A stretch of 64,000 nt of DNA from a virus. Its lineage: Duplodnaviria; Caudoviricetes. A program made the position numbers and the translations under genes. The DNA is taken from the IMG/VR virus record IMGVR_UViG_3300028833_000058. One strand, 5' to 3'. Numbering within the stretch: position 1 is the first letter of the stretch; each line of letters starts with the position of its first letter. Below, one piece after another: positions 10,585 to 63,046 of the stretch. The notes beneath the pieces were generated by a model, which was not told where the DNA came from, did no database searches, and was given only the letters and a program-made list of their open reading frames with translations.

Positions 10585-10971
10585 CTATTCTTTATAATCT
10601 TTTCCATACATTAGTACTTTTGTAGGTGAGAACTTTTCGGCTACGTTCATAAGTGTCCAACGATAGAAGGTTGGATACTCTTTTTCTATCTTGTGTAATT
10701 CTTCTTTATGGTTTTCCATAAACGTTTTTGCTTCACGTTGTGTCCTAAAACAAAGACCAGAATAGAGCTGTTTCTTACTTTGTATGTACGAAGCATCGTT
10801 TTTTCTTGATATACCTGTATCAAAAGGTTTCCATTTGTAACTTCCATGTTTTAAGTACACTGATTTTGTACTTAAATCTAAATCAACAAATGCTTCTCTT
10901 GGAGCCACGTTTCTCTTATATCTTGTTTCGTTGTTACCTGCTGTTGAAAGTTTTATTTTTATCTGTTTCAT
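10585..10971 (-). CDS. hypothetical protein
   Basis: 128-aa ORF downstream of a promoter-like motif near 11050. Confidence 0.6.
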   Translation of the reverse strand: MKQIKIKLSTAGNNETRYKRNVAPREAFVDLDLSTKSVYLKHGSYKWKPFDTGISRKNDASYIQSKKQLYSGLCFRTQREAKTFMENHKEELHKIEKEYPTFYRWTLMNVAEKFSPTKVLMYGKDYKE

Positions 10972-11698: not shown

Positions 11699-11896
11699 TA
11701 TTTTTCTCCCTTGTAAAATTGATAGTTGTAATTATGTTATCACCTTTCCCTAGAATTGGCACTAATGAAGTTATTTGTTCGTTGTCTACAGTCTCATCAA
11801 AAGAAATTGTAGATAACTTTTCATCACCTTCAGAAATGTTTAATATCCATTTACCTTTTACCTTACAAAAATCGAAATTTACCATATGTGCTCCTT

Positions 11897-18785: not shown

Positions 18786-19105
18786 GGTAGTTTTTTTTGT
18801 TTTATTAAAGAAAAAGTTGGTCTTTTTAACCCAGGCAGGAGAAGAACCAACAGAAACTCCATAGAAGGTAACATTAACCTAGTTACCACGGTTTATCATT
18901 CCAGGGCTCTTTCTTGCAGAGCAGCAGATAGTTTCTTTTATGTTCTAGAACTAACAAATACAGTTACACAACGTCTAACTAACGGATGGGTTGTGATAAA
19001 TAGTTATCCCATCAACTATTGGAACTAACAATGAATAAAAAATGATAATTAAGAGATTTTTTATTCGTCTTGTATATTACACAATAATTTTAAAAAGTAA
19101 AGACA

Positions 19106-19300
19106 TTATTTCTTTTTCTTTTTATTATCCACAACAACAGGAACTTCTTTCTTAGGTTCTCTGACGTTGCACTTTGGGGCCTTACCAACATCTTCTGATA
19201 AGTTCTTGATGATAGGACTTAATTTGAGATGTTTAGCCCATTTCTTTTTGAACATCATCTCTTCGAATGATTTCTTCTTCTGTTCAATGTCCATTAACAA
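19106..19300 (-). CDS. hypothetical basic protein
   Basis: TTG start after GAAGGAG. Confidence 0.5.
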   Translation of the reverse strand: MLMDIEQKKKSFEEMMFKKKWAKHLKLSPIIKNLSEDVGKAPKCNVREPKKEVPVVVDNKKKKK

Positions 19301-19415
19301 TCTCCTTCTTTGTTGTTATAAGTGTATATAATAGAACAATAAAAAGTTGGACATTTGTAAAGTTTTTGTAGAATTTTATAAAAAAAAGCGTGTCCATAAG
19401 AACACGCTCTATTGT

Positions 19416-19949
19416 TTATCTGGTAATCTGATAGAAGTAATACCTCTTATTTCCGATTCTAACAATTCTAATCATCATAAACGGAAATTCACCTAAACCA
19501 AATAAAGCTTCATATCTTTTGTACTTTGGTTTAGTAAGAGTAAGACCTAAATCTTCTTTTACGTCATTTTCAACTTCTTGAAGTAAATATTCGCATACTT
19601 CATTTGAGCAAAATTCAACATCTTTTTTACAACACAACGGTTGTTCGTGTACCATACCTCTTTCTAAATAATCTTTAAAGTATTCTTTAACGTCAGTTTT
19701 CAATTCTTCATATTCTAAAGCTTGATTTTGATAAGTAATATGTCTTCCTTTATCATCAAAAATGCCATAAGCTCTAATATTGAATAAAGAATCTGTTAAA
19801 CTTTCATCATCTTGTTTCAACATAGACAAGTAATGTTTAACAATCTCAAAACATTTATCAGCAAAATCACGTTTACAATCATTAGTGATATCATCAATAG
19901 AGTTATCACCGAGTTCACGAAAATTGTGGACAGTTTCTTTTTTTAACAT
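19416..19949 (-). CDS. hypothetical protein
   Basis: 177-aa ORF with AAGGA RBS and downstream terminator at 19381-19410. Confidence 0.7.
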   Translation of the reverse strand: MLKKETVHNFRELGDNSIDDITNDCKRDFADKCFEIVKHYLSMLKQDDESLTDSLFNIRAYGIFDDKGRHITYQNQALEYEELKTDVKEYFKDYLERGMVHEQPLCCKKDVEFCSNEVCEYLLQEVENDVKEDLGLTLTKPKYKRYEALFGLGEFPFMMIRIVRIGNKRYYFYQITR

Positions 19950-20103
19950 ATCTTTTTCCTTTATGGTTAATGGGTTCAGAATGGTTACTGAACATGTCTT
20001 TTACAATTCATCTAACAAGTTAGATGACAGAAATAAATTTACATCTATTTCTGTCATATTATAGAACTTATTTTATTTTATCCACAAAGAAAATTTATTA
20101 GTT

Positions 20104-20775
20104 TTAAAATTTCATCTTTCGACCTTTTTTCCAGCCTTGAGCTACAAATTGGTCTAAAAATTCTTTTTTTATACTTTTATTTTGTTTTAATTCGTCATTG
20201 TATACCCAACAATGACCATAGTTTGAATTTAAATTCCCTTTTTGACGAATTGAATTTTTTATAGCTATTTTCTTCTTTGTTTCTTCTGTTAAATGTTTTC
20301 CTTTCATTGGGTTTTCATGTGTTCTATAGTATTCTTTAAGTCCGTTTGATATTCTTTCTATGTATTCGGAATATTCTTTTTGTGTCATTGATGTCCAAAA
20401 TTTCTTATTTCCAATGATACATGGGTGATTTTTTCCATATTCAATCCAGTTGTTTTTCGCTTTTATAGATTGGATTTCATGATTGTTACAACAATAATCC
20501 CATCCACCTTCTCCACCAACTTTTATGTTATATGTATCAACTCTTTTTATAAATTCTTCATCGACAAGTTCTTTTTCTTTTTGATTCATTTCTTCTTCAC
20601 TCTTACATTCAAATAAAATTTCTTTTTTAAAATTGTTTAATCCATACTTTTTGAATGCTTCAAAAAGTATTTTTCCAGAACCCATGTATTCATCATTTAT
20701 CTTATCAGTTTTATGTTTTCCAATGTAAATTTTATTGTTTAAAACGTTTGTTATTTTATATATTAAAAAGTACAT
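20104..20775 (-). CDS. GIY-YIG homing endonuclease with NUMOD3 (SegB-like)
   Basis: IYKITN...KIYIGKH, YMGSG, YNIKVGG, NPMKGKHLTEETKKKI; start at ATG 20775 after AAGGAG; follows the tRNA array. Confidence 0.9.
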   Translation of the reverse strand: MYFLIYKITNVLNNKIYIGKHKTDKINDEYMGSGKILFEAFKKYGLNNFKKEILFECKSEEEMNQKEKELVDEEFIKRVDTYNIKVGGEGGWDYCCNNHEIQSIKAKNNWIEYGKNHPCIIGNKKFWTSMTQKEYSEYIERISNGLKEYYRTHENPMKGKHLTEETKKKIAIKNSIRQKGNLNSNYGHCWVYNDELKQNKSIKKEFLDQFVAQGWKKGRKMKF

Positions 20776-20823
20776 AACTGTCTCCTTATGTACTAGAACT
20801 TTTTTGTACACAAATTTTTGAAA

Positions 20824-20898
20824 TGGCACAGGATGGTTAGAATCGAACTACCATCTTTCGGGTTGGAGCCGAATATTTTACCATTAAACTAATCCTGC
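20824..20898 (-). tRNA. tRNA-Trp(CCA)
   Basis: TTCGG-CT CCA AC-CCGAA; CCA end. Confidence 0.85.
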
Positions 20899-20903
20899 AT
20901 CAA

Positions 20904-20981
20904 TGGGGTGGTCGGTGAGGATTTGAACCCACATTCACTAGAACCACAATCTAGGGCTTTAACCAATTAAGCTACGACCAC
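20904..20981 (-). tRNA. tRNA-His(GTG)
   Basis: CTAGA-TT GTG GT-TCTAG; C73, CCA end. Confidence 0.9.
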
Positions 20982-21026
20982 AAGAATATACCACATTACT
21001 GATATATGCTTCTAGTCGCAAAAAAA

Positions 21027-21100
21027 TGGCAGAGGTTGACTGACTCGAACAATCATCTTTGGTTTTGGAGACCAGTGTTCTACCTTTGAACTAAACCTCC
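21027..21100 (-). tRNA. tRNA-Trp(CCA)
   Basis: TGGT-CT CCA AA-ACCA; CCA end. Confidence 0.9.
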
Positions 21101-21102
21101 GT

Positions 21103-21177
21103 TGGAGCGACTCATGAGAATTGAACTCATATCTCTAGTTTGGAAGACTAGCATAATAGCCATTATACGAGAATCGC
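21103..21177 (-). tRNA. tRNA-Gly(TCC)
   Basis: CTAGT-CT TCC AA-ACTAG; U73, CCA end. Confidence 0.92.
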
Positions 21178-21179
21178 AT

Positions 21180-21253
21180 TGGAGAACCGCACAGGAGTCT
21201 AACCTGCCTAATTCGGGTTGCAGCCGAACACATAAACGCTCTGTCAACGGTCC
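21180..21253 (-). tRNA. tRNA-Cys(GCA)
   Basis: TTCGG-CT GCA AC-CCGAA; U73, CCA end. Confidence 0.85.
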
Positions 21254-21255
21254 AT

Positions 21256-21333
21256 TGGTGGCAATAACTTGAATCGAACAAGTAACTTCATCCTTATGAG
21301 AGATGCGTTCTAACCAAATTGAACTATATTGCC
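21256..21333 (-). tRNA. tRNA-Met(CAT), probably elongator
   Basis: CATCT-CT CAT AA-GGATG; paired G1-C72. Confidence 0.85.
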
Positions 21334-21336
21334 ATT

Positions 21337-21412
21337 TGGTGAAGATGGTGAGAATCGAACTCACACTCCCCTGATTAAAAGTCAGGTGCTTTACCGATTA
21401 AGCTACATCTTC
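21337..21412 (-). tRNA. tRNA-Lys(TTT)
   Basis: CCTGA-CT TTT AA-TCAGG; CCA end. Confidence 0.93.
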
Positions 21413-21414
21413 AA

Positions 21415-21490
21415 TGGTGGATACCCCAAGAATCGAACTCGGTCCTTCTGTTCTTCAGACAGACGTACGCACCAGCTATACCAGATATCC
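21415..21490 (-). tRNA. tRNA-Phe(GAA)
   Basis: TCTGT-CT GAA GA-ACAGA; CCA end. Confidence 0.9.
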
Positions 21491-21492
21491 AT

Positions 21493-21571
21493 TGGTGGAG
21501 AATGTGAGTTTTGAACTCACCTGAATTTCTCGGTGCAAACGAGATGACCACCCCAAGCAGTCCCATTCCCC
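21493..21571 (-). tRNA. tRNA-Ala(TGC)
   Basis: TCTCG-TT TGC AC-CGAGA; G3:U70; CCA end. Confidence 0.9.
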
Positions 21572-21594
21572 ACGAAATTTATAATATATACCTA

Positions 21595-21637
21595 AAAATA
21601 AGAAAAACCCCCGAAACTTTTTATTTTTTCGGAGGTT
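21595..21637 (-). terminator. attenuator terminator in front of tRNA array A
   Basis: AACCTCCGAAA-loop-TTTCGGGGGTT followed by TTTCTTATTTT. Confidence 0.85.
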
Positions 21638-21676
21638 GTACAATTTTTTACTTAGAGCCAAGAAATAAAGTTTTAG

Positions 21677-21754
21677 TTAATAGTCGACACCTCCGTCAGT
21701 TTTACCTGCGAATCCAAACATGTGCCAACATTTCTTAACTAATCTATTCATCAT
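21677..21754 (-). CDS. leader (attenuator) peptide A, MMNRLVKKCWHMFGFAGKTDGGVDY
   Basis: AGGAG RBS; 25 codons; KKCWHMFGFAGK matches the downstream tRNA set; CGGAGGT at 21695-21689 complementary to the terminator 5' arm. Confidence 0.85.
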   Translation of the reverse strand: MMNRLVKKCWHMFGFAGKTDGGVDY

Positions 21755-21787
21755 ATTAAATAGAACTCCTTTTTCTTTACTTCTTCT

Positions 21788-21816
21788 CTTATATCAAACT
21801 TTTTTCATAAAGTCAA
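21788..21816 (-). promoter_or_regulatory. sigma70-type promoter of leader A and tRNA array A
   Basis: TTGACT-17 bp-TATAAG with extended TG. Confidence 0.75.
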
Positions 21817-21836
21817 GTATTTTTTTTTAAGATTTT

Positions 21837-21964
21837 TGTCAAAGAGAATTTTTCAAACAGATTTTTGCAGCAGGACTTGAACCTGCATAGCTTTTCAGCT
21901 GTTGTTTTTTGAGAACAATGTGTATACCATTTCACGATGCAACTGTTTGACCGCTTCTTTGACA
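21837..21964 (-). ncRNA. Y-RNA-like RNA carrying a tRNA-Leu(CAA)-like body
   Basis: GTCAAAG/CTTTGAC stem, AG-C-GGT bulged-C helix, then D arm, TTGTT-CT CAA AA-AACAA, long variable arm, GCAGG-TTCAAGT-CCTGC. Confidence 0.8.
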
Positions 21965-22067
21965 TAATAACTAAATGAAAAACTTTACGTATTTTTCTTG
22001 AGTACTTCTCAACAACGGTTAGTCAACATTGGAGAGGGGGTATGAAGCCCTAGAAGTAATTAGTTTG

Positions 22068-22188
22068 TGGTAAAGAGTATAAATAGAACAGGTTTATTGC
22101 AGTAGGACTTGAACCTACAATCCTTTGATTAAAAATCAAATGTTTTATCCACTTAAACGATGCAACTGTTCCAACCGCTTCTTTACCA
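22068..22188 (-). ncRNA. Y-RNA-like RNA carrying a tRNA-Lys(TTT)-like body
   Basis: GGTAAAG/CTTTACC stem, same AAGCGGT helix, D arm, TTTGA-TT TTT AA-TCAAA, GTAGG-TTCAAGT-CCTAC. Confidence 0.8.
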
Positions 22189-22199
22189 AAATTTATGCT

Positions 22200-22273
22200 C
22201 GAAGAGAATATTTAGAAATTGTGTATTTAGTCAACAACCCTTAGACGATGTAACAATTTCAACCGCTTCTTCG
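22200..22273 (-). ncRNA. short Y-RNA-like RNA
   Basis: CGAAG-AAGCGGT-GAAATTG...CAATTTC-ATTCT-CTTCG; shares TRCATCG with the other copies. Confidence 0.7.
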
Positions 22274-22282
22274 CTCTAATAA

Positions 22283-22597
22283 TTATTCACACAAATCAGA
22301 GTTTGTACATGAGTTGTATGGCTTACGACTATATGAAACTTCTTCATAAGTTTTTGGCTCATAAACTGTAGTATAAGTAACATCTTTGTAAATTACTTCT
22401 ACTGGTTTAGAAATAGTGTAACTTGTTGAACAAGTGTTACATTCATTGTTGTAAGAACGATATGTGTTGTAAGAAGGTTTAGTGTAGTTTACAACAGGTT
22501 TTTGTTCTTCAACTTTTGGAGTAACAATTACTTCTTCTGTTTCAGCACAAGTACAAGCACTTAATAAAATAGAGCATAACATTAAAACTTTTTTCAT
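22283..22597 (-). CDS. putative lipoprotein
   Basis: Signal peptide MKKVLMLCSILLSAC with lipobox; Tyr/Thr/Cys-rich. Confidence 0.7.
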   Translation of the reverse strand: MKKVLMLCSILLSACTCAETEEVIVTPKVEEQKPVVNYTKPSYNTYRSYNNECNTCSTSYTISKPVEVIYKDVTYTTVYEPKTYEEVSYSRKPYNSCTNSDLCE

Positions 22598-22629
22598 GTC
22601 AATTACCTTTCGAACGTTGTTGATAAGTT

Positions 22630-22721
22630 AGTGAGGATTAGAGTATCATAAAGATTTGTTATTTCTAAAGCAGATTACATGTCTGGACTCGATGTAAATC
22701 TTTAACCGCTTAATCCTCACT
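22630..22721 (-). ncRNA. Y-RNA-like RNA directly after the Ro60 stop codon
   Basis: AGTGAGGATT-AAGCGGT-AAAGATTT...AAATCTTT-ATACTCT-AATCCTCACT. Confidence 0.75.
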
Positions 22722-22724
22722 TTC

Positions 22725-24353
22725 TTAGTCATTTACCGATGTCTTTATTTTAATAGAACTCTTCTTTTCTACTTTTTCATCTGTAATATTATCCATTCTA
22801 TCCCAAATGTCAATTAAAGTTTTAGCATAAATGGATTCTTTACCAGTCCAACCAGTTAGAATACTTGTTCTGTATTCATTTTCTGGCATTACATTGTTGT
22901 CATAGCCAGCTGTTTGAATAGAAAAGATATTAACTTTTGCATTAACCTTTCTTCTATATTCTTGAACAAGCTTTAAGACATCAATGAATTTTGAATTGTT
23001 GTATAAATAATCACGATAATGATGTTCATTTAATCCATACAATCCACCATGACCAGCTTGCATATCAGAGTAGATGAAAATGTTATCGTAATGTATCTTT
23101 TTCTTTATAGCTTCGTCAAAGAATAACCATATACCATTTTCAGTACTAGCACCGATGTTGTGTGAATGTCTACATTGAATTCTATCTAATTGAGACAGTA
23201 CACCATCTCTTTTGTTGACTGATTCGATTTCTAACCTATCTCCAAAGATTCCAACATACCCTTCATCAGAATTAATAGCTGTCATAACTGAAGATAAGTT
23301 ATCAATTTCAGCAACTTTAGTAGAACCATATTCAGTAGTTAATGCACCCCATGCTGAACCAGAGTTATCCGACAAGCAGATGGTCTTACCCTTTAACTTA
23401 GGGAAATTGTCCATTGCTCTATCTATACATCTGTTCAAGCTTTCTACAATAGCAGATTCACCCTTAACACGTGGATTAGAAGTTTGAATAGCCTTTAATG
23501 CAGACCAATATCTAAATGGAAATTGCTTACCCTTTTCGACACCGTTTTCAAGCATTTCAAGAACTTGCTTTCTGACATCTTCATCTTCAATCTCAGTAAA
23601 AATACCACGTAAGTTTCTTAAAAGAGCCATATGTGGGACATAAGTTGCTTGTAAAATTTCTGTCCAAGTTTTACCAGCACTTCTTAACTTTTCCCAAGTA
23701 GATTCTTCTTCTGTAACTTCAATAGTACCAGACTTCATAAGTTCATCAATGTCTTCAGAGTGAGCATGACAAATACGAACTAAGTCGATGATTTTAGCAC
23801 TTGTCTTGTACTTAGCCAATTGATATTTTTTAGTTACAGATAATTTGTTAGCCCATGCTCTTTTTAAGATAGATGGTAATTTACTTTTGGAGCCATTGAA
23901 GAACATCCACAATTCGAACTGATTCCAAATGTCAGTAGGAATGTTGATAACTTCTTCAATGCAACTACGCATGAACACCTTGTTTTCTTCATTAAAAGCT
24001 TTTCTACCATCATACATTACAGCTCTAACCATAATCAAAGCTGGGTTTAAACGCATATTGTATTCATATCTTAACTTTTTAGCAAGATTTAATACACCTT
24101 CGAAATCATAAGCTAAAGCATTGTCACAAGCTTCAACAAAAGTTGCTGTTGTACCAGATAACTCTTTGTTGTTAGCACCATCGTTTTTGTAATATGACTT
24201 TTCACCAAAAATAGATGACGCAGCAACCATTTCTAGCTCTAGCAATGGGTTAGTTTTATAGGAAATACCATTCATGAAGTTTACAACTTGCTCATCTTTG
24301 TGCTTGTTGTAATCTGCTTCAGATTTCTTTGCATAACCTGAGAATTTAGACAT
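22725..24353 (-). CDS. TROVE-domain RNA-binding protein (Ro60/Rsr homolog)
   Basis: SIFGExSYY, YQLAKY, TWExLRS, MALLRNLR, QFPFRY, vWA MIDAS DNSGS, YSDMQ. Confidence 0.93.
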   Translation of the reverse strand: MSKFSGYAKKSEADYNKHKDEQVVNFMNGISYKTNPLLELEMVAASSIFGEKSYYKNDGANNKELSGTTATFVEACDNALAYDFEGVLNLAKKLRYEYNMRLNPALIMVRAVMYDGRKAFNEENKVFMRSCIEEVINIPTDIWNQFELWMFFNGSKSKLPSILKRAWANKLSVTKKYQLAKYKTSAKIIDLVRICHAHSEDIDELMKSGTIEVTEEESTWEKLRSAGKTWTEILQATYVPHMALLRNLRGIFTEIEDEDVRKQVLEMLENGVEKGKQFPFRYWSALKAIQTSNPRVKGESAIVESLNRCIDRAMDNFPKLKGKTICLSDNSGSAWGALTTEYGSTKVAEIDNLSSVMTAINSDEGYVGIFGDRLEIESVNKRDGVLSQLDRIQCRHSHNIGASTENGIWLFFDEAIKKKIHYDNIFIYSDMQAGHGGLYGLNEHHYRDYLYNNSKFIDVLKLVQEYRRKVNAKVNIFSIQTAGYDNNVMPENEYRTSILTGWTGKESIYAKTLIDIWDRMDNITDEKVEKKSSIKIKTSVND

Positions 24354-24448
24354 TTTAGTTCCTTCCTTTCTTTCTCGATTTGTTGTGATTATATTTTCAA
24401 TTTTTGTTAAAGTAAAGTCAATTGTTGTAATTTATACACTTTAGCTGA

Positions 24449-24634
24449 TTAGTTAAGCACTAACTTGTTGAATTTAATGTTTAAATAATCAGCTATAGCT
24501 TTTTTCCAATTGAACTTCTTTACTTTCTTTTTCTTATTCGGCACTACTTTATGTTGAAATAGTGCATTGTGGTAAAGATTGAATAACAAACATCTCTCTT
24601 CACCTGTTTTAGTTCGTTTTGTTTTCTTTTTCAT
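24449..24634 (-). CDS. small basic protein, possibly ArfA-like
   Basis: GGAG RBS; LF-x-H-KV-x-x-KK pattern recalls ribosome-rescue factor ArfA. Confidence 0.35.
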   Translation of the reverse strand: MKKKTKRTKTGEERCLLFNLYHNALFQHKVVPNKKKKVKKFNWKKAIADYLNIKFNKLVLN

Positions 24635-24826
24635 TTTATTTCTCCAAATTATTTTTAATATATTTTTTAAAATACTGACGAACTTTTTTATTGTAATCTT
24701 TAATCATAGCTTGAACAGCATTTTTGTCTCCACTACGTTTATAATCACTTTTATATTCTTCGTCAGGTTTTACATTTATGTTTTTATATCCTTTCATTTT
24801 ATTTCTCCGATAAAAAAGGGAGATTG

Positions 24827-25210
24827 TTATCTCCCGTTGTTTTTGTTACACGCTACGAAACTGCTGTACATTTCCTTGTTAATATTTATGTCCATAGTTT
24901 CAGCTCGTTCCCTCGCTTTTCTTTCATAATATTCAAATCTATCTTTTGTTAATGGATAAAAATACAAGGCTCTCGATTCCATTATTACTAACTTCTTCAA
25001 TTCCTTCTCTGATTTTTCAGCATATTCTTTACATAACATTCTAAAAAGACCGTCTTCTGTTTCTTCATCTTTTATAACGTGTCCATAATGTTTAGATAAC
25101 TTATAAGCTTGTAAATCAATGTTAGCTTGTGTTTCTATCGCTCTTTGTATGTCACCAGACAATTTGCTAAAATTAGACCCCTTTTCATCAGAAAAATGTC
25201 TATAGTCCAT
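24827..25210 (-). CDS. hypothetical protein
   Basis: ORF with upstream AGTTCTA motif. Confidence 0.6.
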   Translation of the reverse strand: MDYRHFSDEKGSNFSKLSGDIQRAIETQANIDLQAYKLSKHYGHVIKDEETEDGLFRMLCKEYAEKSEKELKKLVIMESRALYFYPLTKDRFEYYERKARERAETMDININKEMYSSFVACNKNNGR

Positions 25211-25414
25211 TGTAATAATTCCCTATATATATGTGAAGTGTAATGTATAGAACTAAAAAATCGTTTGTCCATTTTAGAATAATGACCTAGGAAATTCTAA
25301 AACTCTATGTTAATTCATACGACAGGTTTTAACATTACTAAGATGTCATGGAACTACTGGGACAATTGTACAAAAAAGTGTTTGACATTTTGTCCAATCT
25401 AGTGTATAAACTTT

Positions 25415-25723
25415 ATGTGTCAAACAACTGAACTGGACAAAGCAATGGATGTTTTACTTCGTATACTCATAATCTTTATGTTGTTATATATGGTCTATAT
25501 AACCATATCATCTATTTGGGAAGCTGGTGGTCGTACCATACTCGGAAGTATAATGTTTGTGGCCATGATGTGGGCCTTTTGTGCACTTTTAAATACAACT
25601 ATCGTACAAGCTCTTATAGCTTGTTGTTTTCTAGTTGTAATTGTCATGTTGGTACTTCAAGCTATAGCTTGTTTTCTTTCATCAATGATTAGTTATATCA
25701 ATAAGTTATTTAATCATGAATGA
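25415..25723 (+). CDS. small membrane protein
   Basis: Three hydrophobic helices; TTGACA...TATAAA promoter immediately upstream, so possibly leaderless. Confidence 0.6.
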   Translation: MCQTTELDKAMDVLLRILIIFMLLYMVYITISSIWEAGGRTILGSIMFVAMMWAFCALLNTTIVQALIACCFLVVIVMLVLQAIACFLSSMISYINKLFNHE

Positions 25724-26084
25724 AAGAATCAATAAAATCTTCTAAACTAATTTTTTCACCAGTCTCTTTGTTTGTTGCAATCTGTTTGTCAAGACGTATC
25801 ACAAACGAATCGTTAGAAAGAACATATGCACTAAGTTGTCTAAATCCTCTATCTTTAAAGAATTGTAAGATATCTAAGTAGATTTTTGTGTCTTTTGATG
25901 GTTTAATTTTGTCCATATCGACTTTACCATTTCTCCAATCGTTATACATATATTTCGGTAACCATCCAACATATTTTATGCACCGTGTACAACGAATCCC
26001 AAATATTTCAGGATGCGTCTTAGAAATAATATGTTCAAAGTGCGTAGACCCACATATAGGACATATGAATTTATCATTCTTCAT
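25710..26084 (-). CDS. zinc-ribbon protein
   Basis: CPICG...CTRC; start after GAGGA (the track extension overlaps tRNA-Gln). Confidence 0.6.
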   Translation of the reverse strand: MKNDKFICPICGSTHFEHIISKTHPEIFGIRCTRCIKYVGWLPKYMYNDWRNGKVDMDKIKPSKDTKIYLDILQFFKDRGFRQLSAYVLSNDSFVIRLDKQIATNKETGEKISLEDFIDSFIHD

Positions 26085-26105
26085 GAAACTTCCTCTCAGA
26101 TTTAG

Positions 26106-26179
26106 TGGTTTCGGGGGGTCGATTCGGACGACCATTAACGCAGTCAAAGTGCGCTATCCTACCATTAGACGACCCCGAA
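26106..26179 (-). tRNA. tRNA-Gln(TTG)
   Basis: GCGCA-CT TTG AC-TGCGT; CCA end. Confidence 0.88.
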
Positions 26180-26185
26180 ATAAGA

Positions 26186-26314
26186 CGATTGGAGGAGGAG
26201 TCGAACCTCACACAATTAAGAATTACCGTTCTTAAAATTTTCCTCTACTTCCCGTCTTCTTAATCAAACTTTCTTTCGGTAAAAATACTTATTTGACATA
26301 GTAGAGCTCCAACC
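26186..26314 (-). ncRNA. tRNA-like ncRNA with acceptor stem and T arm, copy 1
   Basis: GGTTGGAG/CTCCAATC stem, GAGG-TTCGACT-CCTC. Confidence 0.6.
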
Positions 26315-26349
26315 ATAAAAAAACAATAACTTTTTAATTGAATAGTTCA

Positions 26350-26643
26350 TCACTACCTTGTTCAGTTTGTGGTCTGGAACATATCTTCATCTTCAACATT
26401 ACTTGGCTAGATGGAATCCACTTGTTCTCTACACATTTATTACGAAAGTGCCAGAATCGAACTGGGAACTAAGATTACAACACCCATAGAAGTTATCTCA
26501 GTTTCTATCTATGCTCAATAGGGTCCAACACTATCTCACCTTCATAAATTTAGCTCGGTATTGTCATCAGCATTATCTGTTAAGATTTCACTGAATTCGG
26601 ATTCATTCAAATATACATTTCTGTATAAGTGTTCAGTTTTACC
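26350..26643 (-). mobile_element. group I intron following a tRNA-Gln(TTG) 5' half
   Basis: P AATTCAGTGAAA (26597-26586), Q AATACCGAGC, R GTGTAGAGAAC, S AAGATATGTTCC; boundaries approximate. Confidence 0.7.
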
Positions 26644-26678
26644 CAAAATCTCATGTCCTACCATTAGACGACCCCGAA
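26644..26678 (-). pseudogene. tRNA-Gln(TTG) 5' half; no matching 3' exon found
   Basis: TTCGGGGTCGTCTAATGGTAGGACATGAGATTTTG. Confidence 0.6.
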
Positions 26679-26685
26679 ATAATCA

Positions 26686-26822
26686 CGGTTGGAGGTGGAG
26701 TCGAACCACACACCACTAACATCTGCAGATATTAGAATTTCCCTCTACTTGCCGTTATCTTAATCAAACTTTCACTTCTGCAGAAGTACTCATTTGACAT
26801 ATGAAACATTAGAGCTCCAACC
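26686..26822 (-). ncRNA. tRNA-like ncRNA with acceptor stem and T arm, copy 2
   Basis: GGTTGGAG/CTCCAACC, GTGG-TTCGACT-CCAC (compensatory change versus copy 1). Confidence 0.6.
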
Positions 26823-26967
26823 ATAAAAAACAATAACTTTTTGATTGAATAGTTCATCACTACCAAACCTAAACGGAGAAGTTATTGCAGAAACTCCCTA
26901 AACGTAGGATAGGATTGATAACATTACTAAGATGCCATAGCAATAGTCCTATCACTTCAAACTAAAA

Positions 26968-27060
26968 TGGCACCCCGTAAACTGATTCGAACAGCATTCC
27001 CGTACTAATTGACTGGAGCTATAGACATTCAACTAGCGGTCACCATGACTACAACGAGGT
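26968..27060 (-). ncRNA. aberrant tRNA-like RNA
   Basis: ACCTCGT/ACGGGGT-G-CCA, CTG-TTCGAAT-CAG, no canonical anticodon loop. Confidence 0.5.
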
Positions 27061-27069
27061 ATTAAATGT

Positions 27070-27188
27070 TCTTCTTGACAAGGCTTGAACTTGTACCTAA
27101 ACCTTAGAGGGAATTGTGCTACCGCCGTTAGGGTTTAGTAAAAAGAGCTATAGTATTTACTAAATCTATCCGTTTACACTACAAGAAG
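27070..27188 (-). ncRNA. aberrant tRNA-like RNA with a large D-loop insertion
   Basis: CTTCTTG/CAAGAAG, ACAAG-TTCAAGC-CTTGT, TTTAGTAAA/TTTACTAAA hairpin in the D loop. Confidence 0.5.
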
Positions 27189-27474
27189 ATAATACTATAA
27201 ATTATTAATAAACCAATTGTGAATGTTCTGCCAAAATCCAGACTTTATAGATATCAATGTACCATATATTGCTATCAACGAAACAATTATTGAAAGTATA
27301 GATTCTACAATTTCTAATTTTTCTTTCATTTAACATATTCTCCAATTTTGTATCTTTCTAGGCTACTACTGCGCAACCCTACGACTGCTGCACCATCGTT
27401 TTACGTTCTTCGTTTACTCAGCTTGTATCGTCAATGAAAGTTCCTGAGCTGACGTTTTCCAACCTATTACAACT

Positions 27475-27554
27475 TGGCGGGGCCACATGATTTTCACACG
27501 TTATCTTGGACCTACATCCTAAGCAATCTGTTCTAGAACCAGATTTAACGCCCC
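27475..27554 (-). ncRNA. aberrant tRNA-like RNA
   Basis: GGGGC/GCCCC-G-CCA with three internal hairpins and non-canonical loops. Confidence 0.45.
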
Positions 27555-27782
27555 ATAAAAAAATCGGCAATCGGTTTTTACCCTTTATCCACTCGCTGTT
27601 CGAACTCTTTAGCGTTGGAGGGTCAGGTTACTGTTTTCTACAGCACATAGTTATTTAGGCAATTACCTCTAAATACTAACAACACGCCATCAACCTGTCT
27701 GATTATATAAGCATCAATTTAATACTTATCCGATGTACATTCATATTAAATTGTACTAGTCTATATAATCACGAATTAGAAT

Positions 27783-27868
27783 TGGTGCAAGGTGATAGAG
27801 TCGCACTACCCGAGTCCGAAGACAAGTGATTTACAGTCACTCCCGCTACTCCTACGGTATAACCTTGC
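27783..27868 (-). tRNA. tRNA-Tyr(GTA)
   Basis: AGTGA-CT GTA AA-TCACT; long variable arm; CCA end. Confidence 0.88.
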
Positions 27869-28025
27869 ATAAAAGTAATCCGATAATATCTAAATCTACA
27901 CTTACTTGGTACTAGCATGTAAAACATACTGTCCAAAGCCCCCACTTTCAATTTCTAAAGAAATAGCCGCTCGGATTAACACGGTGGGATGGATTCTACG
28001 AAAAAAGTACGTAAAATCAATGGTT

Positions 28026-28099
28026 TGGTCGAGAACGTCCGATTCGAACGGCAATCCCTCGCCCCAAACGAGGAGTGTTACCCTTACACCACGTTCTCG
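28026..28099 (-). tRNA. tRNA-Pro(TGG)
   Basis: CCTCG-TT TGG GG-CGAGG; C1-G72, CCA end. Confidence 0.85.
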
Positions 28100-28109
28100 A
28101 TGAATAAAA

Positions 28110-28186
28110 TGGTGGAACAGGAGTGACTTGAACACCCAACCTATCCGTTATGAGCGGAGAGCTCTGACCAATTGAGCTACTGTTCC
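28110..28186 (-). tRNA. tRNA(CAT), probably Ile2 (lysidine)
   Basis: TCCG-CT CAT AA-CGGA; overall resemblance to bacterial tRNA-Ile2; identity inferred. Confidence 0.8.
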
Positions 28187-28187
28187 A

Positions 28188-28706
28188 TTAAGCTTTTTTA
28201 TAAGATTTATTCTTCAATATAAAGATTATTCTGCTATGTGCAACACCAAATTTTCTAGCTAATCCACGAGTTCCGAATTCTTTATGTTTTGGAATATAAT
28301 GTTCTCTTATCCATTTAGCTTGTTCATTTGTAAGTTTTGCACCATGGTTATCTTCACCACCATGATATGTTATTAAATTATGCTTTACTGCGTGAATAGT
28401 ATTTTCTTGATTAGTACACCACTCTAAGTTATCCCAACGATTGTTTAATTTGTTTCCATCAATGTGATTTACTTGTGGTTTGTTTTCTGGATTTGGTACA
28501 AAAGCTTCAGCAACCAACCTGTGAATTTTTACACATTTACATCCACCTTTTCTACCATTTGGATATAAAGCGTATACATAATAGCCTGTCTTTCCAATTT
28601 GTTGCTTTACGTTTTTGTTAGACCTACCCTTTAGATTGCCTAGATTACTTATAAAATAACCTTGTATATCAATTTCTTTCCAAATTTCTTCTTCGATGTT
28701 TTCCAT
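28188..28706 (-). CDS. HNH homing endonuclease (NUMOD4-HNH)
   Basis: EIWKEI...YFISNLG, IHRLVAEAF, VNHIDGNKLNN...NLEW. Confidence 0.92.
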   Translation of the reverse strand: MENIEEEIWKEIDIQGYFISNLGNLKGRSNKNVKQQIGKTGYYVYALYPNGRKGGCKCVKIHRLVAEAFVPNPENKPQVNHIDGNKLNNRWDNLEWCTNQENTIHAVKHNLITYHGGEDNHGAKLTNEQAKWIREHYIPKHKEFGTRGLARKFGVAHSRIIFILKNKSYKKA

Positions 28707-28794
28707 TTACAAATTCCTATATTGTTATGACTAATTTATAGAACTATATAAATGGTGCCTATTTTTCATCGAACACAAAATTTTTATAAAAATT

Positions 28795-28866
28795 TGATTC
28801 CAACGAGATTCGAACTCGTATTACCACCGTGAAAGGGTGATGACCTAACCGTTAGTCGATGGAATC
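28795..28866 (-). tRNA. tRNA-Glu(TTC)
   Basis: TCACC-CT TTC AC-GGTGG; CCA not encoded. Confidence 0.88.
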
Positions 28867-28945
28867 ATAATAATCAACGCTTTTTGATTGCATGGTAAAA
28901 ACCACCAAACCTTATTATGGAGAAGCATTGATGAAACTCCTTGAT

Positions 28946-29022
28946 TGGCGGGAGTGACCAGTCTTGAACTGGCGACCTCCACAGTGACAGTGTGGCGTTC
29001 TGACCAACTGAACTACACCCCC
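28946..29022 (-). tRNA. tRNA-Asp(GTC)
   Basis: CCACA-CT GTC AC-TGTGG; G73, CCA end. Confidence 0.93.
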
Positions 29023-29024
29023 AT

Positions 29025-29112
29025 TGGTGGATTTGATGAGACTTGAACTCATATGGTCACAATGACCGAGGGATTTTAAGTCCCTTGCGTATACCAGTTT
29101 CGCCACAAATCC
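29025..29112 (-). tRNA. tRNA-Leu(TAA)
   Basis: AGGGA-CT TAA AA-TCCCT; long variable arm. Confidence 0.93.
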
Positions 29113-29116
29113 AAAT

Positions 29117-29191
29117 TGGCTGGGATGGAGAATTTCGAAATCTCGACCTACGGTTTAACAGACCGCCGCTCTGCCTCTGAGCTACACCCCA
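29117..29191 (-). tRNA. tRNA-Asn(GTT)
   Basis: GCGGT-CT GTT AA-ACCGT. Confidence 0.92.
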
Positions 29192-29197
29192 ATATAA

Positions 29198-29272
29198 TGG
29201 TGCCACATGAGAATTTTGCAATCCCGACCTACCGCTTACAAGGCGGTTGCTCTACTTCTGAGCTAATGTGGC
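29198..29272 (-). tRNA. tRNA-Thr(TGT)
   Basis: ACCGC-CT TGT AA-GCGGT. Confidence 0.9.
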
Positions 29273-29276
29273 ATTT

Positions 29277-29410
29277 TGGCGGGAGTGACTATATCTGTGT
29301 CATTATAAAGTCATTTAATTAACATTTTGTATCACTGAGTGTCCTACACTTTTATATATCTAGAATCAGATAGGCAAAACTCTAACTACTTTGTATTTAA
29401 CAGAACTCCC
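29277..29410 (-). ncRNA. 134-nt RNA with a tRNA-Asp-like acceptor stem and CCA but a non-tRNA interior
   Basis: GGGAGT...ACTCCC-G-CCA; 3' end matches tRNA-Asp (GTCACTCCCGCCA). Confidence 0.45.
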
Positions 29411-29417
29411 ATAATAA

Positions 29418-29494
29418 TGGCAGACCGTACAGGACTCAAACCTGTGACACCAAGCTTAGAAGGCTTGTGCTCTATTCTACTGAGCTAACGGTCT
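29418..29494 (-). tRNA. tRNA-Arg(TCT)
   Basis: CAAGC-CT TCT AA-GCTTG. Confidence 0.92.
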
Positions 29495-29820
29495 ATAAGA
29501 GTTATATAGGATAGGTAAACCAACGTATTTACCTCTTGCGTTATGGAGCAATGATTTGTTCCAATGTAATCTGGGCTCATCTATTCTTACGAGATAGACC
29601 ATCCTATATGTTCTATGGTTTGGGATGTGGAAGCGAATCCATCTTCCTTTTTGTACCCTAGGCCTGACCGATATACACTTTACAATGTATAACATCCCAA
29701 GACTTGTAGTTTTCATAACGGTCCATTTAGAGATTCTACTGAGCACTGTCCGTTATGGGAATCTGCTTTGTTAAGGAGCTCTAAATCTCTTAACCGCAGT
29801 TACTACAACCCTCTCAGCAG

Positions 29821-30225
29821 CTAATCTTTAATCTTCACGAGTTCATAAACATTAATTGGATATTTCCTTTGTTCACAATTTGCAATTTTATAAACTCTAT
29901 GTTTATCTATACCCAAAATATATTTTACGATTCTACCGATATCTTTACCAGCTTCAGCTTCTGGGTTATCAATTTTTCTTTTTACATGGTACTGATACAC
30001 ATAATCTAATGGTGTATAAGACCAATCTCTAAATTTACCTCCAACAATATCAGAAGTGGTAAATTGCTTTTTATAAGCCAAAGCTCCTTGAATCATACCA
30101 TTTATAAAAGTTGTCAATTCAGCTTGTTGCATGTAAGATAGTGATTCAAAAGCACTGGACTTTTGTATGTTAGAATTGATAATCATAGCTCTTTTCCTTT
30201 CATGTATGATTATAATGTTAAACAA
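29821..30225 (-). CDS. hypothetical protein inserted in the tRNA array
   Basis: ORF; probable start at MIINSN after GAAAGGA. Confidence 0.65.
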   Translation of the reverse strand: MFNIIIIHERKRAMIINSNIQKSSAFESLSYMQQAELTTFINGMIQGALAYKKQFTTSDIVGGKFRDWSYTPLDYVYQYHVKRKIDNPEAEAGKDIGRIVKYILGIDKHRVYKIANCEQRKYPINVYELVKIKD

Positions 30226-30280
30226 GTTTATTAAATGAGAAACAAGTTATTTAACGACCCCTGTTTCGGTTTAAGTCGAT

Positions 30281-30373
30281 TGGCGGAGAGAGTAGGATTC
30301 GAACCCACGGTGGTATATTTCACCCACGGCTGATTTCAAGTCAGCTGCAATAGACCAACTCTGCCATCTCTCC
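30281..30373 (-). tRNA. tRNA-Ser(TGA)
   Basis: GCTGA-CT TGA AA-TCAGC; long variable arm; G73. Confidence 0.93.
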
Positions 30374-30381
30374 ATGATATT

Positions 30382-30462
30382 TACAGATGGAGAGATTTGA
30401 ACTCTCACGCATTTCTGCACTGGTTCCTAAGACCAGAGTGTCTACCGTTCCACCACATCTGT
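30382..30462 (-). tRNA. tRNA-Leu(TAG)
   Basis: CTGGT-CT TAG GA-ACCAG; CCA not encoded. Confidence 0.9.
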
Positions 30463-30469
30463 ATAAATT

Positions 30470-30546
30470 TGGTACAGCTGGATAGACTCGGACTATCGAC
30501 CCCTGCCTTATCAGAGCAGTGCTCTAACCAACTGAGCTACAGCTGT
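30470..30546 (-). tRNA. tRNA-Ile(GAT)
   Basis: CTGCT-CT GAT AA-GGCAG. Confidence 0.92.
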
Positions 30547-30551
30547 ACAAA

Positions 30552-30628
30552 TGGTAGAGGTGAAGAGATTTGAACTCCTGACCCTCTCGGTGTAAACGAG
30601 ACGCTCTAACCAGCTGAGCTACACCTCT
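30552..30628 (-). tRNA. tRNA-Val(TAC)
   Basis: TCTCG-TT TAC AC-CGAGA. Confidence 0.93.
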
Positions 30629-30664
30629 ACAAAAAGTATTTCCTATTCACAATGTCATTATAAC

Positions 30665-30700
30665 TAAAATAAAAACTCGTCTTTTTATCTTTGACGAGTT
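30665..30700 (-). terminator. attenuator terminator in front of tRNA array B
   Basis: AACTCGTC-loop-GACGAGTT followed by TTTATTTT. Confidence 0.85.
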
Positions 30701-30750
30701 CCTATTTCTTTTAACTTTTTAAATGTTTTGATTAAGCAATAGCAAACTCG

Positions 30751-30813
30751 TCAGCCTTGTTCTCTAGGTTGATTATATAAATCTGAGTATGTTACTATCG
30801 TTTTAATCATCAT
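30751..30813 (-). CDS. leader (attenuator) peptide B, MMIKTIVTYSDLYNQPREQG
   Basis: GAGG RBS; 20 codons; TIVTYSDLYNQPREQ matches the downstream tRNA set; TGACGAGTT (30753-30745) over the stop codon complements the terminator 5' arm. Confidence 0.85.
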   Translation of the reverse strand: MMIKTIVTYSDLYNQPREQG

Positions 30814-30842
30814 ATTAATTAGAACCTCTTCATTGAAATTTT

Positions 30843-31127
30843 TTATATTGTACAGAATTTTTTCTTATTTGTAAAGTCTTTTTTTTCAATTTTCTTTACT
30901 TTTTTGTTAATATAGTTGATAACATCTTGAACTGTAATGAATTTTTTTGATACCTTGTCTGGTATTTCAATATCAAATTCACACTCTAAAGCCATTATAA
31001 TTTCGATTATATCCAAACTATCGGCTCCGAAATCGTCAACCAAGCTTTTAGATTTCTTGATTGCGGATTCTTTTATGTCCAAGTGTTCAGAAATGATACC
31101 TATTACTAATTTTTCAACACTCTTCAT
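30843..31127 (-). CDS. acpP: acyl carrier protein
   Basis: DDFGADSLDIIEIIMALECEFDIEIPD phosphopantetheine motif. Confidence 0.9.
   Translation of the reverse strand: MKSVEKLVIGIISEHLDIKESAIKKSKSLVDDFGADSLDIIEIIMALECEFDIEIPDKVSKKFITVQDVINYINKKVKKIEKKDFTNKKKFCTI
30847..30875 (-). promoter_or_regulatory. sigma70-type promoter of leader B and tRNA array B
   Basis: TTTACA-17 bp-TACAAT inside the ACP gene 3' end. Confidence 0.7.
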
Positions 31128-31613
31128 TCTCTCACCTTGTGAAAATTACCGATTCTTTAAGCACGTTGGGTATGCCGTCTGAATAACTGACTACTCCTTA
31201 CGTTATCATTCTCAGTTGTACGATAACAGCCCAATAGTCATATAGTTGACGTTTTGCACATAGTGGCATCTCGGTATTCCATTTGTCTTTACAGACATTC
31301 GTATATAAATTCGGCTGAAGGACTCCTGACTACCTCCAAGCAGTATATTAAGCGCATTATTCAGTCACATCCACATAAGTTAGCTACTCTTATGCTTTTA
31401 GGATGAGGAGATTGATTACTCCTAAACGGATACAGATATCAGCATTTCAACCTACGATTTGTCCGTTTCTTACGTCACTAAAGGTTGGCCAACCCTTGCT
31501 ATTTCAACCTTATGCTTCTTAATACCTGGCAACTATATAGTAAACTTTTCAGTATTATTATATATCTCTTTATTAGCCATCAACTAATTATTTAGAGAAA
31601 GCCAAATTTATAT

Positions 31614-31691
31614 TGGTTGCAGGGAATGGATTCGAACCACTGACCTCTAGGTTATGAGCCTAGCAAGCTGACCTGACTGCTCTACCCTGCT
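31614..31691 (-). tRNA. initiator tRNA-fMet(CAT)
   Basis: A1xA72 mismatch, A11:U24, CTAGG-CT CAT AA-CCTAG. Confidence 0.88.
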
Positions 31692-31990
31692 ATAAAACAA
31701 ACTTATGGGTTATTGATGTTCTATATTTGAACTATAAATAGGTGATAAAGCTATTTATTTAGGCACCTCCCCTAAAATTTTCAATATAATTGGCAGAGCG
31801 TTTAATGCGTTTTCAGGAGTTCTGCCAACAAATTTATATGTCATTTCTTTTAGGTCTACACCATTTTACCCCCTAGGCTGCTTAAGACGAATGACAAGAC
31901 TAGCAGTGTTATATCTATCCGTTTTAACAAAATAAGAATTTGGTGCCCTCTAGATATAACAGTATAGTTTGGGCGGACTATGGTTCTAAT

Positions 31991-32065
31991 TGGAGCAGAT
32001 AATGAGAATTGAACTCATATCTAAACCTTGGCAAGGTCTCATACTAACCATTGTACTATATCTGC
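31991..32065 (-). tRNA. tRNA-Gly(GCC)
   Basis: AGACC-TT GCC AA-GGTTT; U73. Confidence 0.9.
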
Positions 32066-32069
32066 GTTA

Positions 32070-32162
32070 TGGCGGATACTAAAGGATTCGAACCTTTGCG
32101 AGATGTTACCACCCCCTAACGGTTTAGCAAACCGTCCTCTTCACCAGCTTGAGTAAGTATCC
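32070..32162 (-). tRNA. tRNA-Ser(GCT)
   Basis: ACGGT-TT GCT AA-ACCGT; long variable arm. Confidence 0.92.
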
Positions 32163-32170
32163 ATAAAATG

Positions 32171-32245
32171 TTCCACCGTCAAGACTTGCACTTGAACTTG
32201 TAATCCCCCGATGGATTACTATGCTACTGTTACATCACTGGTGAA
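32171..32245 (-). ncRNA. aberrant tRNA-like RNA with enlarged anticodon arm
   Basis: TTCACC/GGTGGA, D arm, GTAATCC-ATCGGG-GGATTAC, TCAAG-TGCAAGT-CTTGA. Confidence 0.5.
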
Positions 32246-32279
32246 ACGAAAAGGAGGAAATAAACCTCCTCCAAAAAGA

Positions 32280-32594
32280 TTATTTTTTCTTCTTTTTAAT
32301 TTTCTCTTCTTTCTTCTTGAACTTAGAAGCAACCCAATTGAAGAAGCAAACGATGACGTTCCAAATCATCTTCAATGTAGAAGTAACTAAATCAATAAGA
32401 AAAGACTTAATAATTCCATAAAGACCAACTACAATAGCTTTAATCCAAGCCCAAAGAGCTTTCAAAAAACTTACAACTGGTTCTTTAATCAGATGCCAAG
32501 AAGTTGAGAATAAATCTCTAACTGCTTTCCATCCAGCAGTAGAAAAAGCTTTAACACCTTTCCACCATTCTTTTAAGATTTCTTTAAAAGTCAT
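32280..32594 (-). CDS. amphipathic Trp-periodic protein
   Basis: Roughly 11-residue aromatic periodicity; GAGGA RBS. Confidence 0.65.
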   Translation of the reverse strand: MTFKEILKEWWKGVKAFSTAGWKAVRDLFSTSWHLIKEPVVSFLKALWAWIKAIVVGLYGIIKSFLIDLVTSTLKMIWNVIVCFFNWVASKFKKKEEKIKKKKK

Positions 32595-32991
32595 ATTTTT
32601 CCTCTTATTAAAAAGAATTAAAATAACGATTGATTACTACCCTATCTGTCGTGAACGCCTTTGGCAAGGTTAGGTCAACAAAGTCTTTCGGTTATCACAG
32701 CTTACCTAAGAAAATTCCTATTAGCCTTTTGGGTGGTTGCCACTATCATCTGTGTCTTAGATTTATGTAATCAATCTTTCTGCACGACCAGAACTTGTAT
32801 ACTCCCATCTATAAGCGTTGGTACCTTACTTATAGCGCAGGTGGTCAATTCCACAAACTGAGAAGTTTGCTGTATTTGGAAATCCAAACCTTAAGCATCT
32901 GGAGTCTATTTAGTGTATCATTTCCTATTTACAATTTTATTATAACATATACTTTATAGAACATCTTTTTATTTGAGTAAAGACAAAAAAT

Positions 32992-62941: not shown

Positions 62942-63046
62942 ATTATGATTTCACTATTCAATGTCTTTACAATCAAAAAACGTTTATAGTGTATAGAACT
63001 ATTTTAGTTAACATGTCCTTAGCCAAAGTGTTCTGTTAGGTGTAAT

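Follow-up and report, generated by a model that had tools for sequence, protein, structure and literature searches.

Introduction

The leaders of the enterobacterial ilvGMEDA (Ile/Leu/Val) and thr (Thr/Ile) operons combine a short translated leader, which carries sensor codons for more than one amino acid, with an intrinsic terminator and an overlapping antiterminator that depends on the ribosome. Their targets are biosynthetic enzymes, and runs of codons allow them to monitor two or three amino acids. Here we analyse a locus that has the same set of parts and lies in front of phage tRNA genes. It is found on a stretch of 64,000 nt from a large uncultured rumen phage (IMG/VR record IMGVR_UViG_3300028833_000058); this whole stretch is called the window in the following. 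One cassette (A) carries a leader open reading frame (ORF) that spells eight amino acids ahead of nine tRNA genes, and its paralogue (B) samples twelve to fourteen amino acids. Leader A shares no sequence homology with the ilvGMEDA and thr leaders and has no Rfam match. Judging from sequence comparison and RNA folding models, we think it likely that cassette A is a ribosome-mediated transcription attenuator of the leader-peptide (trp/ilv) type, placed before a phage tRNA operon and providing feedback on tRNA supply.

In the layout of its RNA segments the locus also resembles trpL and hisL, with a 1:2-like hairpin, a 2:3 antiterminator and a 3:4 terminator in the window. However, trpL and hisL sense a single amino acid and their 1:2 hairpin is conserved, whereas here the 1:2 hairpin is predicted in the window only and is absent from the relatives. 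Leader-peptide control of a component of the translation apparatus is known from the pheST attenuator with its pheM leader. In that case the target is a synthetase, the leader senses through Phe codons only, the system is not phage-borne and no tRNA genes are controlled. In T-box riboswitches, too, the choice between antiterminator and terminator follows the charging state of tRNA. In contrast to the locus described here, these riboswitches bind uncharged tRNA directly, need no translation and carry conserved motifs, none of which is detected by Rfam at this locus. T-boxes are known for synthetase and amino-acid genes, with one specificity per element.

To our knowledge, next to nothing is known about the regulation of phage tRNA genes. 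A search of the full-text literature, with subscription journals and the older T5 literature outside its coverage, gave no account of leader-peptide control of tRNA genes. Why phages carry tRNA genes at all is debated, with codon compensation on one side and escape from tRNA-targeting defences on the other (PMC10264068).

Leader A and its tRNA array

The initial annotation of the locus had described a promoter, a ribosome-binding site, a 25-codon ORF, an intrinsic terminator and nine tRNA genes. All of these elements were found at the positions listed in Table 1 by direct reading of the sequence, ARAGORN, Rfam and folding, with the promoter to be regarded as putative. It is not listed by a consensus promoter scan because the scan demands T as the last base of the -10 element and that of site A ends in G. 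Relatives carry TTTACA-17-TATATA at the equivalent position of the alignment.

The central part of the ORF is a run of twelve consecutive codons drawn exclusively from the eight amino acids of the array, with none of the eight missing, as originally reported. Based on the amino-acid usage of the window itself, the probability that a 12-codon stretch stays within this set and covers it completely is 2.1e-8. Multiplied by all 128,000 codon starts, this probability amounts to 0.0027. The matches to the array anticodons had been called mostly exact, which agrees with eight of the twelve core codons being exact Watson-Crick complements; the other four require wobble.

Between the ORF and the terminator lies a spacer of about 39-40 nt, and the terminator is separated from tRNA-Ala by 23 nt. 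The reported complementarity of CGGAGGT, close to the end of the ORF, to ACCTCCG in the terminator 5′ arm was reproduced. This antiterminator duplex has an energy of -13.3 kcal/mol compared to -6.2 ± 1.7 kcal/mol for 1000 dinucleotide shuffles (p = 0.001), and the fold of the entire leader A has a z-score of -4.4. The locus shows the parts expected of an attenuator: a short ORF, apparently under selection as a coding sequence, between a promoter-like site and the regulated genes; cognate regulatory codons; an intrinsic terminator before the regulated genes; and an antiterminator that shares the 5′ arm of the terminator. Each testable prediction that the proposed trp/his-type architecture makes at the sequence level held.

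AT-rich phage DNA is rich in short ORFs, and the window contains 414 ATG-started ORFs of 15-40 codons, one of which might by chance adjoin the ordinary terminator of an upstream unit. However, the next longest in-set run among these ORFs is 5, compared to the twelve codons of leader A with their low probability per stretch. Conservation in seven sequences, a paralogue in the same genome and the permutation test described below also stand against chance, and we regard such an origin as hardly credible. The leader ORF is confirmed as a real observation, as first described.

Ahead of the ORF lies a 5′ signature that consists of GTTCTA, three bases and AATATGATGA. It occurs twice in the window, with 0.11 occurrences expected. 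Both copies precede leaders (A and B), and the signature is also found before the leaders of L045, L046, L047 and L071. The shorter motif GTTCTA(T/A), often preceded by A, recurs between genes on the minus strand (at 62999, 61029, 32962, 28744, 25253, 22089, 20799, 20067 and 19337). The GIY-YIG endonuclease gene has one copy upstream of its Shine-Dalgarno site, and both leaders have the motif 12 nt before their ATG. The motif is a possible promoter element specific to the phage; leader mRNAs started from it would be nearly leaderless.

Predicted alternative structures of leader A

Equilibrium folds of the full leader with a masked ribosome were not discriminating: the terminator was favoured at every ribosome position, with P of about 0.9 or more. 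They were replaced by folds of transcripts that end just before the terminator 3′ arm. The ribosome was represented by a mask of 29 nt around each A-site codon, and the model is thermodynamic only. For all seven versions of cassette A that were compared, the folds of these pre-terminator transcripts predict the antiterminator with the A site at codons up to 16, and its loss with the A site at codon 17 or later, up to the stop. The modelled geometry is that of an attenuator: the antiterminator is free during a stall at the sensor codons, as had been proposed, and covered once the ribosome has come to the last part of the ORF. All eight amino acids of the array have a codon in the permissive zone, the last of them being Ala at codon 16.

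The earlier proposal that a ribosome reaching the stop codon covers the antiterminator strand needs a qualification: masking of the 7-mer is complete for A-site codons 17-25 and only marginal with the ribosome exactly at the stop codon.

With no ribosome on the leader, the leader-internal hairpin is predicted to sequester part of the antiterminator strand in the window fold. The terminator loops of all leaders (21617-21626 and 30682-30692 in the window, and those of all relatives) are unusually large, with 8-15 nt, and A-rich. Such loops would slow the closure of the hairpin and may favour the antiterminator kinetically. A possible pairing of 4-6 bp between the Shine-Dalgarno region and the terminator 5′ arm was seen in some folds and was not relied on.

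Conservation of cassette A

Seven distinct versions of cassette A were compared, for which three IMG/VR contigs and three further metagenome contigs were used. The patterns used to search for relatives demanded the core at the amino-acid level. A search by the motif of the 5′ untranslated region alone led to the same three viral contigs, one of which was also reached via the neighbouring TROVE gene. Within the core, all variation among the seven sequences is synonymous and affects four variable codons (AAG/AAA, CAC/CAT, GGA/GGC and GCA/GCC/GCT). Codons 6, 7, 17, 18, 21 and 22 are invariant and lie outside the demands of the pattern that yielded three of the seven sequences. Positions that change the amino acid are codons 3-5, 19, 20 and 23 onward. 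Contigs of at least 85% identity from three further rumen runs represent strain variants; they differ by one synonymous change within the ORF (CAC to CAT at 21722) and by five in the 40-nt spacer. Codon 14, for Gly, is matched to the Gly anticodon of the phage's own array in 5 of 6 phages.

The 7-mer CGGAGGT is invariant in all seven sequences. Where the terminator arm carries the variant CCTCTG, the 3′ arm compensates and the 7-mer pairs through G-U; co-variation between antiterminator and terminator is hardly present in cassette A itself. The initial annotation had made its proposal dependent on related phages conserving the frame and the complementarity, and both are kept in seven of seven sequences. 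No loss of the leader frame was seen in close relatives that keep the array. A second promoter-like site between terminator A and the array was found in none of the seven A-type sequences.

The paralogous cassette B

Cassette B carries the same 5′ signature and precedes the second tRNA array of the window (Table 1). Leader B holds all of the amino acids of the tRNAs behind it (14/14) and carries the twelve amino acids that are outside the set of leader A. Jointly, the sensors A and B hold all 20 amino acids, for which P is 1.1e-4 with 30 random residues. Taken alone, leader B is not significantly enriched for its own regulon (binomial P = 0.12), because this regulon covers 81% of background usage. 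Support for leader B lies in its coverage, in the partition of the 20 amino acids and in the anatomy of the switch. Among the relatives of cassette B, three different terminator stems were found, and with each of them the ORF end is altered so as to supply a matching upstream copy. Such co-variation is seen in cassette B and in other leader types. When the Thr gene missed by ARAGORN and the Tyr gene missed by both programs are counted (Table 1), the phage tRNAs cover all 20 amino acids.

Directly before the first tRNA of B-type and C-type arrays, a conserved motif, ACATTGT(A/G)AATAGGAAA, was observed in several phages. A role of this motif as a processing signal is possible.

Leaders in other phage lineages

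The correspondence between leaders and arrays was also assessed in a contig set that is independent of leader sequence. It consists of 44 contigs fetched by the TROVE protein alone and includes lineages with differently ordered arrays. A blind search of these contigs for a short ORF and a terminator upstream of an array found leaders that are unrelated in sequence. In a permutation test with nine leader/array pairs, every leader was scored against every array. The summed score of the own pairs was 29.2, compared to a permuted mean of 6.8, and was reached in 0 of 100,000 permutations. The best-matching array was the own array for seven of the nine leaders, and 65 of the 66 array amino acids are present in the corresponding leaders. 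The initial annotation had suggested a search of phage tRNA arrays for upstream short ORFs whose codons track array content, and the nine pairs are of this kind. Antiterminator candidates of these leaders are located at -24 to +4 from the stop codon (p = 0.004-0.097).

A third leader type was found in the related contig L112. Here, 10 of 17 codons are Ser, Pro, Tyr or Gln codons, ahead of exactly those four tRNAs (P = 8e-5). The Tyr gene of L112, at about 3925-4011, is undetected like that of the window. An HNH-like ORF lies between the Tyr and Gln tRNA genes of this contig.

The leader ORF could also encode a functional micropeptide followed by an ordinary terminator, with the tRNAs coming from leaky read-through or other promoters and the array match being caused otherwise. 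Synonymous-only change would fit any translated and selected peptide, and the Thr/Ser-x-Gly-Gly tail of the leader peptide is conserved too. However, a micropeptide would leave three facts unexplained: peptides of other lineages, unrelated in sequence, each spell their own array; the two paralogous peptides divide the 20 amino acids between them; and every ORF has a copy of the terminator 3′ arm at its end. In addition, tblastn of the leader peptide against cultured phages gave no match, that is, no relative of the peptide was found there. We consider a micropeptide of this kind very unlikely.

Genomic context and occurrence

The window has a G+C content of 31% and encodes an anaerobic ribonucleotide reductase, a ClpB-like ATPase, a Ro60/TROVE protein, an acyl carrier protein and homing endonucleases. 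Among public reads, gut runs of sheep and cattle contain the stretch. In two studies, contigs from RNA libraries span the leader and the terminator and stop at 21549/21550 in both cases, which is 22-23 nt inside tRNA-Ala, with no loose ends; DNA contigs continue beyond this position. The RNA-library contigs could be read-through precursors or stem from DNA carry-over, and their ends could reflect an RNA end, a reverse-transcription block or an assembly break where the tRNA sequence is conserved; no conclusion is drawn. The RNA-library material consists of assembled contigs, from which 3′ ends and read-through ratios are not readable.

An Rfam scan of positions 19000-34000 with E up to 0.01, in which T-boxes and known leaders were included, showed tRNA as the only credible family. 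Three further matches, to unrelated families, were sub-threshold and overlap tRNA genes. In cultured phages, DNA similarity was limited to tRNA-Ala, which is about 82% identical in T5-like phages. The T5-like tRNA region L048, analysed with the same pipeline, showed no leader/terminator cassette. No match was obtained for a 630-aa protein of the window in cultured phages, nor in bacterial genomes searched with the GMP-reductase-like protein. The TROVE protein is 48% identical to gp540 of Bacillus phage G, which does not identify the host.

A repeated module of about 170 nt, with a tRNA-like T-arm at its end, is present in two copies close to the Ro60/TROVE gene; this module may be Y-RNA-like. 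Homing endonuclease genes of the GIY-YIG (SegE-like; 20104-20829, minus strand) and HNH type (28188-28706, minus strand) sit among the tRNA genes, a likeness to the tRNA regions of T4 and T5.

Table 1. Features of the two cassettes, of their arrays and of related loci. Positions refer to the window unless a contig is named; all features of cassettes A and B are on the minus strand.
Feature	Position	Strand	Remarks
Promoter-like site A	TTGACT 21816-21811, 17-nt spacer, TATAAG 21793-21788	-	Putative; direct sequence reading
AGGAG (21770-21766), then GTTCTA motif	21761-21770	-	5′ signature; 12 nt ahead of double ATG
Leader ORF A, 25 codons + TAA	21754-21677	-	Frame from translation of the sequence; kept in 7 distinct sequences
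Sensor core, codons 7-18, KKCWHMFGFAGK	21736-21701	-	K, C, W, H, M, F, G, A only, all eight present
Leader-internal hairpin	21683-21729 (21729-21722 with 21690-21683; inner 21712-21706 with 21699-21692)	-	Predicted; helices of the minimum free energy fold
Antiterminator strand CGGAGGT, codons 20-22	21695-21689	-	Complementary to ACCTCCG of terminator 5′ arm
Intrinsic terminator A	21637-21595 (11-bp stem 21637-21627/21616-21606)	-	10-nt A-rich loop, T-tract; from fold
Array A: tRNA Ala(TGC), Phe(GAA), Lys(TTT), Met(CAT), Cys(GCA), Gly(TCC), Trp(CCA), His(GTG), Trp(CCA)	21571-20824	-	ARAGORN; Rfam agrees
Cassette B	30665-30875	-	Paralogue of cassette A, same 5′ signature
Promoter-like site B, TTTACA-17-TACAAT	30875-30847	-	Putative
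Leader ORF B, 20 codons	30813-30751	-	
Antiterminator B, 15 bp	30753-30739	-	Begins at stop codon; pairs with terminator 5′ arm, p below 0.001
Terminator B arms, then T-tract	30704-30693 and 30681-30670	-	
tRNAs behind leader B: Val, Ile, Leu, Ser, Arg, Thr, Asn, Leu, Asp, Glu, Met, Pro, Tyr, Gln, then Lys- and Leu-like genes	21862-30628	-	
tRNA-Thr(TGT)	29272-29201	-	Missed by ARAGORN; Rfam 55.9 bits
tRNA-Tyr(GTA)	about 27869-27783	-	Long variable arm, unusual T-loop; missed by ARAGORN and Rfam; alignment and clean cloverleaf fold
Second promoter-like sites of cassette B relatives	L113:10550-10600; L109:14590-14640		
	L110 about 3650-3700	-	
	L114 about 11790-11850		
ACATTGT(A/G) motif	window 30630-30665; L113 about 10780-10810; L109:14640-14670; L112:3705-3735		
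Unrelated leaders	L021:10276-10335; L021:14761-14850; L021:15897-16004; L032:1038-1139; L032:20372-20479; L044:12843-12920		
TROVE gene and repeated module regions	22725-24353, 26190-26870, 21862-22167	-	

Discussion

From the anatomy, the statistics, the conservation and the match between leaders and arrays, we infer translation of the leader, ribosome stalling and regulated read-through in the following way. Transcription would start at the promoter-like site, and a ribosome would translate the 25-codon leader. With charged Lys, Cys, Trp, His, Met, Phe, Gly and Ala tRNAs in plentiful supply, the ribosome would move quickly past codon 16 and cover CGGAGGT during synthesis of the terminator. 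The 11-bp hairpin would then form and transcription would stop before tRNA-Ala. Slow decoding of any sensor codon would lead to a stall at codons 7-16 and leave CGGAGGT free. The free strand would pair with the emerging terminator 5′ arm, and RNA polymerase would read into the nine tRNA genes. Since the tRNA product would relieve the stall, this amounts to negative feedback on the usable tRNA supply. Cassette B would act likewise on the tRNAs that serve the remaining twelve amino acids.

Several observations weigh against such an attenuator. The spacing between AGGAG and ATG is long, with 11 nt, and only AAGG is found in the relatives. Runs of tandem identical regulatory codons, which most classical attenuators use and which are typical rather than strictly defining for the family, are not found in leader A; it has one to three codons per amino acid, with at most two of them adjacent. 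The antiterminator of cassette A comprises only 7 bp and is far weaker than the terminator. Because the terminator prevails at equilibrium, the attenuation model depends on kinetics; in classical attenuators, the terminator is likewise favoured at equilibrium. Two of the core codons, 17 and 18 (Gly, Lys), fall inside the masked zone. The ORF of L114 is three codons longer, and a ribosome at its stop codon leaves the 7-mer unmasked. For the state without a ribosome, termination is predicted in the window and read-through in most relatives. The conservation of the core is partly circular, since three of the seven A-type sequences were retrieved by a pattern requiring codons 8-16 at the amino-acid level. 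A Firmicutes host would disfavour the mechanism, because transcription can outrun translation there. Finally, four relatives carry a promoter-like site, CTTTAC-17-TATAAT, between the cassette B terminator and the array, so that array B would not depend on the attenuator alone in these phages. The window is without this segment of about 55 nt, and its cassette B terminator abuts the array.

The second promoter-like site in these relatives and the weakness of the 7-bp antiterminator would also fit a system in which translation of the leader is sensed and the output or logic differs from the trp model. Its output might be transcript stability, precursor processing, a timer of general loss of host translation, or a boost over basal promoters. 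The intergenic recurrence of the GTTCTA motif, which precedes the ATG by 12 nt, points in the same direction, as a phage promoter at this site may yield a nearly leaderless mRNA. On the other hand, the alternative between antiterminator and terminator is significant, lies consistently at the end of the ORF and co-varies, and the seven A-type sequences have no promoter-like site between terminator and array. We consider a different output rather unlikely and keep the ribosome-mediated attenuator as the likely explanation.

A broader role is possible but doubtful. The two regulons, with tRNAs for 20 amino acids, could allow the leaders to audit the whole decoding capacity of the infected cell. 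Loss of host tRNAs, be it through anticodon nucleases or through the phage's own host shut-off, would be detected and the affected set resupplied. The system would then serve as a self-tuning counter-defence as well as a translation supply, and it would recur in several large-phage lineages with unrelated leaders. The link to anticodon nucleases is speculation.

If ribosome-mediated attenuation is true for this locus, the phage would exert direct feedback control of tRNA supply through decoding speed. Attenuation would thereby be extended from amino-acid metabolism to the translation machinery itself, and leader A would be the most multivalent attenuator known to us. The model predicts that withholding any one of the eight named tRNAs opens one terminator and not the other. 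In uncultured phages, the composition of a leader could predict the tRNAs of one transcription unit.

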